A stretch of 63,777 nt of DNA, the filler included, from Reclinomonas americana ATCC 50394 (Eukaryota): the NCBI GenBank assembly GCA_048213135.1. It is 20 parts of 20 records of this genome, joined end to end, with 100 filler letters (N's around TTAATTAATTAA, not from the genome) between each part and the next. Parts side by side here need not be neighbours in the genome. Positions count along the whole stretch, not along the records: positions 40,166 to 44,285 come from AFZH01018331.1; 19 more parts are not named here. The stretch is one strand, 5' to 3'. A model generated the notes under the pieces. That model searched no databases and was not told the origin of the DNA. It saw only the letters and a program-made list of their open reading frames with translations. Position numbers and translations under genes: made by a program. Numbering within the stretch: the stretch's first letter is position 1; the number at the start of each line of letters is the position of its first letter. This document shows, piece after piece, positions 2,585 through 43,609 of this stretch.

Positions 2585-4928
<2,344 letters not shown>

Positions 4929-5030
4929 TTNNNNNNNNNNNNNNNNNNNNNNNNNNNNNNNNNNNNNNNNNNNNTTAATTAATTAANNNNNNNNNNNNNN
5001 NNNNNNNNNNNNNNNNNNNNNNNNNNNNNN

Positions 5031-9107: not shown

Positions 9108-10074
9108 NNNNNNNNNNNNNNNNNNNNNNNNNNNNNNNNNNNNNNNNNNNNTTAATTAATTAANNNNNNNNNNNNNNNNNNNNNNNNNNNNNNNNNNNNN
9201 NNNNNNNAAATTCGAGAGGATGGGGGTGCGTGAGCGAGTGGCTGGCGATGCTGCTGTGAATGGCAAAGGCAGATGAAAGGTGAGCTTCATTTTCAGCGAG
9301 TTTTTGCAGAGAGGAAGAAAAAATCAAAAACAATTATTTCCCACACACCACCACGTTCCAAAATGCGATAAATGCCCACGAATCGCTTCACACCAAGTAA
9401 TGTGTAAGCACACAATTACTTGGACCAAGCACTCTTCTCTAGCAGTCACAGAAAACGTAAATATCGACGTCAAACGCGAGTGGGCTTCACTTCCCCACGG
9501 GGCTCGACGTCGTCAACTTGTGCTAATTCCAGCTTCCATACAGCGATATGTACTTGACGAAAACCAAGTGGCATTTGAGAGAATGGAGCTCGAGCAGTGC
9601 AGCGTGCTGAACTGCGAAGTGCCGATGCCGAATTCGAAGACCTTGCTGGCCTCGGAGAAGCACGCCGTCGAGTCTGCTGATTCCAAGCCCTTCGCAAGAA
9701 CGTGTGCTGCCGTTAACCCTCGAGGGAATCGGGAAACCGGAGATGCATGTAGCACAAGCAACGAAAGAGAAATTGACGTCGCAACGTTGAATTCATAACG
9801 ATGGCAGACGAACTCCATTCTCGGCTTTGCTAATTCCAAAAGCCGTTCACAGCAGCGAGGACTCCACATGTCTTGCGCCCCAGAAGCGCCGCGGGAGAGG
9901 TCAGCGCAACACGAAACACCGAATTTGAATTTGTCGAGCTCTGCATGCTTCGTGATCGCATTCTTCGCCGTTCTGCACCTTCCCTGCACATGCGTACTTG
10001 CAGCCAACCCAATCCACCCTCGCGCCTCTTGCAACTCACCTCGTCCTGCACCTTTCGATATCGAACACCATTTC

Positions 10075-41490: not shown

Positions 41491-42389
41491 ATGACGTCTC
41501 GACTTGTTGGCATCGTGGTTTCACAGTGGGTGGGTACATTGCTCACTCGGAGAGGTGCCCGGTGCAGCGCGTGTTGCTTCATTGAGCGGCGTGTACGCGG
41601 GAGGTTGAGGAATGGTACTTCTCAACAGGTTTCACAGGAGTGCGCACACCCCGTTGCCGGAACCCTCGCCACGTCGGCTGCCAGACATTGGCGTGAAGGC
41701 TGAATTCGAGACGACACGTCCATTCGGAGTGTAGCACACAAGCCGGTCGTGCGTGCCGGACGGCTCAATGGGCCACCTGCTATGTGGTTGGAAAGGAGAA
41801 CGACAACAGAGAGAAGCAGTCTCAATCATCAATCCATCATGGACGTGCAAGCAGCAACACGCTTTCAACTTGACTCTTCCACTGCAACATCTACTCTCTT
41901 GCCTCTTGCTCCTCCTCTTGTACCTCCAGATCTAGACGTTCACTTGCAAACGCTAACTTCGGTGACTGCGGTCTCTCGTGTGGAAGGCTGTGTATGTGGT
42001 GCACCAATCATATGCGTCGTACGAGCAAGTTGCATCCCACAAGGGAGCGAGGTACACGCGCAAGTGAACCGGAGAAAGAAATATATAAAAGAAAAACACG
42101 CAGGACAACCGGACTCTCTTTTCAATGGCGAGTAAGGTGAGTGCCGTGCTTGCTTGCTGCGTGCACAGTGCTTGTTGGATGGCTGAGGGTCGTGCAGGTA
42201 CTGCGAGGCCACACGAGTGGGGTGCTTGCAGTGGCAGTGACACCTGATGGCCAGCACGTTGTCAGTGGCAGTCGAGACAAGACTGTGCGGGTGTGGTCGG
42301 TGGCAAGTGGAGAGGAGGTGCGCCGACTGGAAGGCCACACGGATTGGGTGCTTGCAGTCGCAGTGACACCGGATGGCCGGTACATTGTG

Positions 42390-42774
42390 GCCAACACGCG
42401 TTTGATTGGCTTTGTCTCCTGAAAGGGAAGATGACTGTTGGAGATGATTTATCTATGTGTTTTTTATATTGTTGGTGTGCCAATGGTCATCGTCGGCAAG
42501 GGATTTGTGGACATTTGTCGCATTATTGGAATGTGGTGAATGAAGTGTTTTGTTGAGTATTAATCTCTTTCTCTCTCTGTCGCCTTGGGTGGGGAGCAAG
42601 CCGGGCGCGTGCCGGCGTGTGCTGCAGCGCACGTCGGCAGCGCCTGCGTGGGCGGGAGACTCCTCTCCCCACGCAGCAGTGCTTGGCGAACGAACACTCT
42701 GTTCGTTCGGCAAGTATTGTCCGGTTTTTTCCCGCCTTTGGCTCGATTTGGGTTCTGTCGCATCGCGACTTCTG
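42390..42774. mobile_element. 385-bp non-coding insertion (putative non-autonomous mobile element) with a TG dinucleotide at both junctions
   Basis: Removing it restores ...TAC ATT GTG|AGT GGC AGT CGG (YIV-SGSR), matching the intact junction at 42892-42912. No GT/AG ends at these boundaries, no terminal inverted repeat, no poly-A. Small hairpins at both ends: GCCAA-n11-TTGGC and GTCGC-ATC-GCGAC. Confidence 0.75.
42582..42742 (+). ncRNA. Predicted four-way-junction (cruciform) structured RNA or ssDNA inside the insertion
   Basis: Paired by eye: closing stem 42582-42604 with 42721-42742, H1 42605-42643 (17 bp), H2 42644-42676 (~14 bp), H3 42677-42719 (~19 bp). The helices abut with only one unpaired base (42720). 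About ten G-U pairs form only on the + strand. Expression is unknown. Confidence 0.55.
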
Positions 42775-43609
42775 AGTGGCAGTCGGGACAGCACTTTACG
42801 GGTGTGGTCGGTGGCAAGTGGCGAGGAGGTCCGTCGACTGGAAGGTCACACGGATGTTGTATATGCAGTGACAGTGACACCCGATGGCCAGCACATTGTG
42901 AGTGGCAGTCGGGACAGCACTTTACGGGTGTGGTCGATGGCAAGTGGCGAGGAGGTCCGTCGACTGGAAGGTCACACGGATGTTGTATATGCAGTGACAG
43001 TGACACCCGATGGCCAGCATATTGTGAGTGGCAGTGATGACAGGACTGTACGGGTGTGGTCGATGGCAAGCGGCGAAGAGGTGCGCCTACTGGCGGACGT
43101 TGTATATGCAATGACGGTGACACCCGATGGCCAGCATATTGTGAGTGGCAGTTATGACAGGACTGTACGGGTGTGGTCACTGGCAAGTGGCGAGGAGATG
43201 CGCCGATTGGAAGGCCACGTGAGAGAGGTGCGTGCTGTGACAGTGACACCCGATGGTCAGTATATTGCGAGTGGCAGTGAGGACAAGACTGTACGGGTGT
43301 GGTCGATGGCAAGTGGCGAGGAGGAACGCCGACTGGAAGGCCACACGTTGTCGGTGCGGGCGATGGCAGTGACACCCGATGGCAAGCACATAATAAGCGG
43401 CAGTGCGGACAAGACTGTACGAGTGTGGCCCACAACACGCGGCCTTGCCGATGCCGAGCTGCAAGCTGCCCGGAATGCCCGTCTAGCCATCATCGAGCTC
43501 CAGCAGCTGCCGCCCGATGCGGACGGTGACCCGCGGTGCCTCGTAGAGATTGTGTTGCGCTGCTTCATCGGCGAGGACGCGGAGGTTATTCTCTTTGGTG
43601 CGCCGATTT

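Follow-up and report, generated by a model that had tools for sequence, protein, structure and literature searches.

The stretch of DNA analysed here (the window) comprises 63,777 nucleotides of the genome of Reclinomonas americana ATCC 50394 (assembly GCA_048213135.1) and consists of about 20 contigs of 1.2–5.1 kb each, joined by linkers of the form N44-TTAATTAATTAA-N44 (e.g., 40066–40165), such that adjacency in the genome is not implied. The contig at 40166–44285 (AFZH01018331.1) carries a gene encoding a series of WD40 repeats, the second of which is interrupted by an insert of 385 nt (42390–42774). A first-pass annotation of the sequence had placed the insert precisely between the codons GTG and AGT of a WD40 repeat, with TG at both junctions, and had described it as having no terminal inverted repeats (TIRs), poly-A or splice ends, as bearing short terminal hairpins and as containing a four-way-junction fold at 42582–42742. 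All of these observations were borne out by the analyses described below. The main new result is that the insert is composite, with a repeat (unit A) in its 5' part joined to a second unit (unit B) that bears the fold (Table 1).

The left junction of the insert reads ...ACA CCG GAT GGC CGG TAC ATT GTG / GCCAAC..., in the frame ...TPDGRYIV. At the right junction the insert ends in ...GCGACTTCTG and is followed by AGT GGC AGT CGG GAC, where the downstream frame restarts as SGSRDSTLRVWS.... Excision of 42390–42774 (385 nt, 1 mod 3) rebuilt both the WD40 repeat and its frame, giving ...GRYIV/SGSRD..., as in the neighbouring repeats. With the insert retained, the upstream frame hits a stop at 42420–42422, 10 codons into the insert. 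The TG at each junction results in three equivalent registers for the insert, and the 126-nt WD40 array called by the tandem-repeat finder (TRF) begins at 42773. We recognised 22 WD40 repeats in the window, and none but the insert-bearing one is interrupted. The allele-specific left exon sequence of the gene is GGCCGGTACATTGTG.

Unit A comprises the 5' terminal hairpin (42390–42410) and two long imperfect hairpins. A comparison of the Logan contigs of DNA run X1 with 41800–42905 identified a contig of 526 nt that matched 42385–42554 only, with one mismatch and one homopolymer indel. This contig leaves unit A into unlike sequence on both sides, with TTTTA on the right of its copy. The pentamer TTGTG stands immediately to the left of unit A both at the WD40 site (42385–42389) and in the X1 copy, and we estimated the chance of both near-identical copies sharing it at ~0.001.

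An older copy of unit A was found on another contig of the window. In a blastn search of the insert against the window there was one real match outside the insert itself, of 41 nt at 85% (E 9e-7), and it lay on this contig. Local alignment of the older copy gave a score of 133.5 (75.1 +/- 7.5 in 300 shuffles), and nhmmer gave E values of 0.003–0.006. When the copy was compared piecewise with 2000 random window segments, the number of segments that scored as well or better was 8 for the left end, 1 for the middle and 0 for the core; beyond 42554 it was 858 of the 2000, that is, there was no similarity. The ends of the similarity coincide in both of the other copies, at 42385–42390 on the left and at 42554 (X1) or ~42556 (window copy) on the right, and at the WD40 site the insertion begins exactly at the left end of unit A. 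The flanks of the X1 copy and the window copy scored 8.0 (left) and 13.0 (right) against each other, both at or below the null mean, and are unrelated, which indicates that the three sites share a discrete unit and not a paralogous locus. A likeness of the flanks noted by eye, which had raised the idea of unit A as part of a paralogous locus, was not supported by this scored test. Based on these comparisons, 42390 to ~42554 is a discrete dispersed repeat, both ends of which have been defined twice.

Unit B has a CT-rich start and ends with the hairpin GTCGC-ATC-GCGAC (42757–42769) followed by TTCTG. Searches of the window by blastn, nhmmer and covariance model identified no second copy of it, and neither the X1 copy nor the window copy of unit A is followed by unit B or a similar sequence. 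Weak matches to unit B by nhmmer (58276–58170, E 0.067) and by covariance model (at most 18.4 bits) were discarded as low-complexity or GC-rich noise. A likeness of the start of unit B to RNA of the signal recognition particle (SRP)/Alu type was also considered and dropped, as none of the SRP models gave a score.

Table 1. Features of the insert-bearing WD40 gene and the older copy of unit A (window coordinates)
Feature	Position	Strand	Basis or remark
Putative first coding exon, WD40 gene: ATG and 3 codons	42125..42136	+	Inferred; in frame with the repeats only after removal of the 61-nt intron
Putative conventional intron, WD40 gene: GTGAGT...GTGCAG, 61 nt	42137..42197	+	One of 10 inferred introns, all GT..YAG
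WD40 repeat 1 and first half of repeat 2, ending ...GRYIV	42198..42389	+	Translation, repeat comparison
Unit A, 165 nt, AT-richer dispersed repeat	42390..42554	+	Copies in run X1 and at 9490-9324
Unit B, 220 nt, GC-rich	42555..42774	+	Single copy in window (blastn, nhmmer, covariance model)
Four-way-junction fold: closing stem and three abutting hairpins	42582..42742	+	Folding compared with shuffles, covariance model
Remainder of repeat 2, five more WD40 repeats and C-terminal tail to stop codon	42775..43614	+	Pfam WD40, E 5e-63
Older copy of unit A, ~70% identity with indels	9324..9490 (collinear, 9490-9324)	-	blastn, alignment, nhmmer; other contig

Folding of 42582–42742 as + strand RNA gave -117.4 kcal/mol, compared with -69.8 +/- 4.3 kcal/mol in 200 dinucleotide shuffles (z -11.0), none of which was as good. 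The predicted structure has 70 base pairs arranged as a closing stem plus three hairpins that abut one another directly, and the minimum free energy (MFE) structure represents 0.25 of the ensemble. As - strand RNA the same region reached -82.3 kcal/mol (z -5.4), and a similar difference was seen for the complete insert as RNA, with -175.7 (z -7.4) for the + strand and -116.1 (z -4.8) for the - strand. With DNA parameters the two strands of the complete insert were alike (z -6.5 and -5.7 for + and -, respectively). When 1469 windows of 160 nt were scanned, the minimum energy on either strand was found at 42561 (-97.0), and with correction for GC content the sole place that ranked higher was a low-complexity tract of (CT)n/(CA)n at 59361–59401. 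A covariance model of the fold scored 179.9 bits on the + strand versus 43.2 on the - strand, with 18.4 bits at the next best place in the window.

The predominance of G-U among the non-Watson-Crick pairs of the + strand had previously been taken to suggest selection for a single-stranded fold in that orientation. The + strand does fold far better, there is no A-C mismatch and all four 1x1 mismatches are G-G. The G-U share itself (27 of 143 pairs on the + strand), however, is what composition allows, since the + strand of the insert is G+T-rich (T123, G117, C85, A60) and mononucleotide shuffles also yield 22% G-U pairs. The strand asymmetry is real and can reflect selection on the + strand RNA or on single-stranded DNA, or a one-sided mutation bias. 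Similarly, the T6 run that had been pointed out at 42725–42730 is present, but it sits within the closing stem; because the paired stem goes on for ~12 further bases 3' of it, the run does not end the folded unit, unlike a terminator of RNA polymerase III (Pol III). The small terminal hairpins (42390–42410 and 42757–42769), with stems of 5 bp, are also present.

The fold had also been proposed to represent a ribozyme, a guide RNA or a Pol III RNA. A search of Rfam returned 0 matches at the gathering threshold in the window, and nothing for unit A, and so provided no support for membership of any such family, or of the families of snRNA, SRP RNA, RNase P/MRP and group I/II introns. The best sub-threshold match for the insert was to mir-375, a generic hairpin-like microRNA model, at 23.7 bits compared with a threshold of 46.7. 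Two features upstream of the fold were observed in addition: a TATTAAT box at 42558–42564, some 25 nt before the closing stem begins, and the best-conserved block of unit A (42498–42538), which lies 50–85 nt upstream of the stem and recurs in the old copy. By analogy, this spacing recalls the external promoters of small RNA genes.

To compare the insert with the introns of this genome, we used the 10 introns of the window that reading frames and matches to protein families, rather than RNA, allowed us to infer. The S-adenosylhomocysteine hydrolase (SAHH) gene (2585–4930) has three of these, the glutaminase gene on the - strand two, and the TBC-like gene just upstream of the insert-bearing WD40 gene four. 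All 10 are GT..YAG introns (9 CAG, 1 TAG), and 8 of them have CTCAY 16–25 nt before the 3' site. The three registers of the insert give GC..TG, GG..CT and TG..TC, with no GT/GC..AG in any of them, and CTCAY does not occur within 50 nt of the 3' end of the insert in any register. A group I intron was rejected, as a U preceding the 5' joint is in no register combined with a terminal 3' G, and there was no Rfam match to group I or II. The code described for Euglena nonconventional introns is 5'-N3CDG ... CH'GN5-6/R, with a purine starting the next exon (PMC12501133; also PMC11170887 and PMC11282704). It does not occur in any register of the insert: positions +4 to +6 are AAC, CAA or CCA, and in place of CHG 5–6 nt before the 3' end there is GAC/CGA or CGA/GCG, or the exon begins with T. 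Although the insert folds very compactly, its ends lie in separate small hairpins and are not paired together in the predicted folds, with at most a 4-bp CGCG/CGCG pairing between them. None of the other introns of the window is nonconventional (0 of 10, a small sample). By any rule tested, the sequence of the insert is therefore not that of an intron.

The termini of the insert were also compared with those of known classes of mobile elements. Apart from the WD40 units, no direct repeats of at least 10 nt were found. Runs of T stop Pol III, and the insert has internal T6 runs at 42460–42465 and 42725–42730 and no A-rich tail, such that the features of a short interspersed element are missing. 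Helitrons have 5' TC and 3' CTRR ends and a hairpin 10–12 nt before the end. The insert starts with GCCAAC, GGCC or TGGC depending on the register, and ends with CTTCTG, with its hairpin 5 nt before the end. Helitrons insert between host A/T or T/T, according to passages of PMC10288648; the host bases at the joint here are G/A, T/G or G/T on the + strand and T/C, C/A or A/C on the - strand. The terminal direct repeats of Replitrons were likewise absent, as the termini of the insert share nothing longer than TG by eye and no repeat of at least 10 nt was found. The lengths of the three copies (165, ~165 and 385 nt) would fit an opposite-orientation retroposon with a shared 3' end and 5' truncation, but this was kept only as a minor possibility since a tail is missing and that strand folds less well.

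Several features of the insert resemble those of HUH or rolling-circle elements (Helitrons, Replitrons and IS200/IS605 mini-elements), namely the lack of TIRs and of a clear duplication, the hairpins near both ends, its orientation-specific character, TTGTG on the left of the young copies, and the far better folding of one strand. IS200/IS605 elements are prokaryotic, and elements of this kind insert 3' of a fixed 4–5-nt motif without TIRs or duplication. Here, TTGTG stands to the left of both young copies of unit A (2/2) and GTGAA to the left of the old one, and subterminal hairpins of the IS200/IS605 type are present at both ends, although with 5-bp stems these constitute weak evidence. The hairpins of IS608 and Helitrons lie 10–20 nt inside the ends, whereas those of the insert abut its ends. 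The fixed left end and the extra sequence on the right only are reminiscent of Replitron-1, for which read-through, or "fuzzy right ends", has been described (PMC10288648). As far as the same passages go, the insert differs from Helitrons in that its joint is not A/T or T/T, and from Replitron-1 in that its joint is not after RG and there are no terminal direct repeats (PMC10288648). No Rep/HUH gene was seen among the scanned open reading frames (ORFs) of the window.

IS607-like elements are moved by a serine recombinase and have a core dinucleotide shared by their ends and the target. The insert is comparable in having TG at both joints and no TIRs, although a 2-nt identity is weak (chance ~1/16), and a recombinase gene was not seen among the scanned ORFs either. 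Introners and introns derived from miniature inverted-repeat transposable elements (Micromonas, dinoflagellates, Amoebophrya, Fritillaria) are similar in being repeated short non-coding elements in the coding exons of protists. According to PMC11282704, however, these elements bring or create usable splice sites and are bounded by TIRs and by target-site duplications of 3–8 nt, whereas the insert lacks splice sites and TIRs and has only TG exactly repeated at its junctions.

Based on the features above, we tentatively favour, at somewhat short of even confidence, the explanation that the 385 nt represent a recent DNA-level insertion of a non-autonomous mobile element that inactivated this WD40 paralog. 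We infer mobility, and the kind of mechanism, from the arrangement of the sequence; a mobile insertion is favoured because the terminus of a discrete repeat sits at the joint of a base-exact interruption. The earlier proposal of a non-autonomous mobile element of unclear class was thus fair in so far as at least the 5' 165 nt are repeated elsewhere, but the insert is not one unit, as the repeat stops at ~42554 in both other copies. Unit A would be a complete member of a dispersed ~165-nt repeat family with sharp ends. Unit B may be cargo or read-through that was carried with unit A, or may stem from the insertion of another element at this very site. Strand-specific copy-out from one fixed end, for instance of a rolling-circle/HUH-like or site-specific recombinase-like kind, would fit better than retroposition or the cut-and-paste movement of a TIR transposon, because there are no TIRs, the junction repeat is at most 2 nt, there are hairpins at the ends, both young copies have TTGTG on their left, and the insert combines a fixed left end with extra sequence on the right only. 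The WD40 paralog itself is most likely fast-evolving, and since the insertion, as assembled, ends the frame 10 codons in, this copy has most likely been inactivated.

A number of observations weigh against a mobile element. No inverted repeat links the ends of the insert (6 of 11 terminal bases match by eye), and the only exact target-site repeat is TG, with TTGTG and TTCTG matching at 4 of 5 positions. The older copy has GTGAA on its left instead of TTGTG, and an 18-nt deletion in it removes one arm of the unit A hairpins; as these hairpins are not kept in the older copy, unit A's own fold seems dispensable. The copies known from the window and run X1 together are three of unit A and one of unit B, and the passage of the X1 contig through unit A into unique flanks implies that near-identical copies are few in that run. 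Run X1 contained no contig over either junction or unit B, and the junctions were not independently re-seen, though missing contigs prove nothing. Exact and degenerate patterns of the unit A left end, the unit A core and hairpin H3 of unit B matched 0 loci in metagenome, viral and prokaryote contigs. Lastly, there was no transposase, HUH, recombinase or TnpB/Fanzor-like ORF among the 158 window ORFs scanned against Pfam (8 + 150), a scan that was incomplete for nine long first-chosen ORFs (two large WD40 genes lacking a nucleoside triphosphatase domain, and others), 25 further ORFs of at least 95 aa and all shorter ones.

The alternative that survives best, although we consider it unlikely, is templated (copy-in) repair, in which the WD40 repeat broke and was mended by synthesis primed through short microhomologies on ectopic templates, copying an X1-type locus (unit A) and then a second donor (unit B) before rejoining. 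Such repair would account for the TTGTG (5 nt) that precedes unit A both in the WD40 gene and at the X1 locus, the TG (2 nt) at the right joint, the lack of TIRs or a target-site duplication, and a composite build with an abrupt A/B joint at 42554/42555; the low copy number of unit A at near-identity in run X1 is also consistent with it. Synthesis-dependent microhomology-mediated end joining and filler DNA are known, as excerpts of two reports describe (PMC2943611, PMC2567098), and the insert resembles templated or filler insertions at repaired breaks in its joint microhomology, its patchwork of segments and its absence of transposon hallmarks. Unlike filler insertions, however, the first segment of the insert shares its ends with an independent family member. 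The ends of the copied piece match the positions at which the independent old copy loses similarity, which is expected of a discrete unit, whereas a random patch would do so only by coincidence. In addition, the X1 copy and the window copy have mutually unrelated flanks, and break repair leaves the strong asymmetric structure of unit B unexplained.

An assembly or amplification artefact, in the form of a chimeric join in a fragmented draft assembly, is improbable. The short contigs and linkers of the window and the difficulty of assembling WD40 repeats are compatible with such an error, as is the content of run X1, where the word depth was 23.6 for the upstream region and 7.2 for unit A, the latter in its other context only, with junctions and unit B missing from the contigs. 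A chimera of this kind, though, needs two independent joins in perfect register that return at the very next base of the repeat, and the absence of contigs carries no weight as proof.

We give a similarly small chance to an extended form of the mobile element explanation, in which the insert belongs to an undescribed eukaryotic family of strand-specific mobile elements, of a single-stranded DNA or recombinase type, that land 3' of TTGTG without duplication and whose right part encodes a four-way-junction RNA serving the element. If so, the RNA could be a guide-RNA-like scaffold reading into the flank, or could enable exact excision from host transcripts, with the result that an element in a coding exon would cost the host little.

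Removal of the insert from the pre-mRNA in the manner of an intron appears very unlikely, whether exact (structure-guided, and non-spliceosomal or relaxed) or inexact, using the GT at 42380 with the AG at 42775–42776 or 42781–42782. The insert is sense-oriented, with a sense strand that folds much better than the antisense strand, and the short junction repeat makes its borders "slidable", as they are in most Euglena introns according to passages of PMC12501133. These properties, together with the lack of GT-AG, are shared with the nonconventional introns of euglenids and hemistasiid diplonemids, which have been proposed to be transposon-derived, as stated in parts of four reports (PMC12501133, PMC11170887, PMC11282704, PMC12621601). 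In contrast to the introns of euglenids, the insert has neither the CDG/CH'G end-pairing code, in any register, nor a terminal helix joining its ends, which do not pair with each other in the predicted folds. The introns of the window have GTGAGT-like donors, while GTGTG is reported for E. gracilis in a passage of PMC11170887. Likewise, extensively pairing non-GT-AG introns make up ~97% of the introns of hemistasiid diplonemids, as excerpted from PMC12621601, whereas all 10 of the other introns here are canonical. For the inexact route, both cryptic GT..AG pairs (42380–42776, 397 nt, and 42380–42782, 403 nt) keep the frame, and the donor GTACAT resembles the GTACGT and GTACCT donors of the neighbouring gene. 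These pairs would, however, delete 4 or 6 residues of a WD40 beta-strand, one of them needs a GAG acceptor, which is used by none of the 10 inferred introns, and neither has CTCAY. No RNA run containing the sequence was listed among the 24 runs, and three RNA runs (X14, X16 and X24, chosen by species label) had 0 reads on 41800–42905, which says nothing on expression or splicing.

Equally doubtful is the possibility that the insert carries, in its folded part, a gene for a functional RNA or a scaffold, such as a structured RNA with an upstream element in unit A or the right-end guide scaffold of a TnpB/Fanzor-type element: the fold is single and well defined (MFE 0.25 of the ensemble, z -11) and strand-asymmetric, is preceded by the TATTAAT box and by the 40 nt of unit A that are best conserved, and is placed in the 3' part of the insert ahead of a hairpin and the junction, but it belongs to no Rfam family (23.7 bits against 46.7), stem pairing goes on 3' of the T6 run, and unit B is absent after both other copies of unit A. 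For both intron-like removal and a carried RNA, positive support does not extend beyond the fold.

Several further observations were made on the WD40 genes. The insertion point divides the hexamer GTG/AGT at 42387–42392, which reads GTGAGT in intact repeats (e.g., 42898–42903 and 43024–43029). GTGAGT is also the commonest 5' splice-site hexamer of the genome (4 of the 10 inferred introns), possibly a mere coincidence. The adjacent WD40 units at 42775–42900 and 42901–43026 are near-identical in DNA, with exact stretches of more than 60 nt (TRF period 126), and a repeat near 43090 is three codons short. Taken together, these are signs that unequal exchange or conversion is continuing within the array. 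Long ORFs ending in a similar WD40 array were found on several other contigs (21652–24342, 24489–25304, 26580–29477 and 29526–29900), and the N-terminal 700 residues of these had no Pfam match among the top families listed. This distribution suggests that the WD40-ended ORFs form a large, recently expanded family. Among the 120 proteins listed for the 64-residue left part of the WD40 protein, the best identity was at most 73% and no insert-free ortholog was found; in the same protein collection the best match of the SAHH exon was 81%, with no close relative found.

Elsewhere in the window, intron 1 of the SAHH gene is 717 nt long and extremely C/T-rich, and contains (2864–3395) four dispersed copies of a 57-nt motif with 74–93% identity to the reference copy, each holding a GC-rich near-palindrome, GCACACGTGC-TTC-GCACGCGTGC. 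A second group of outliers in the folding scan was located at 55680–56400, where purine-rich and pyrimidine-rich blocks that are mutually pairable alternate with a period of ~240 nt; TRF did not call this region a tandem array. Microsatellites of the (CT)n, (GA)n or (CA)n type form many of the contig ends.

If the insert is an unclassified mini-transposon that killed one WD40 paralog, then it represents an ordinary event, and is useful as a pseudogene call and as an entry in a repeat library. The finding would be weightier if the folded half were functional, which the present data do not show, as it would then represent a new system for how mobile elements become tolerated within exons. Exact non-GT-AG interruptions with strong structure on the sense strand have so far been characteristic of the nonconventional introns of euglenozoans, and structured right-end RNAs are characteristic of TnpB/Fanzor-type elements. 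With a functional folded half, the case described here would be in a eukaryote that is unrelated to Euglenozoa and has conventional introns.

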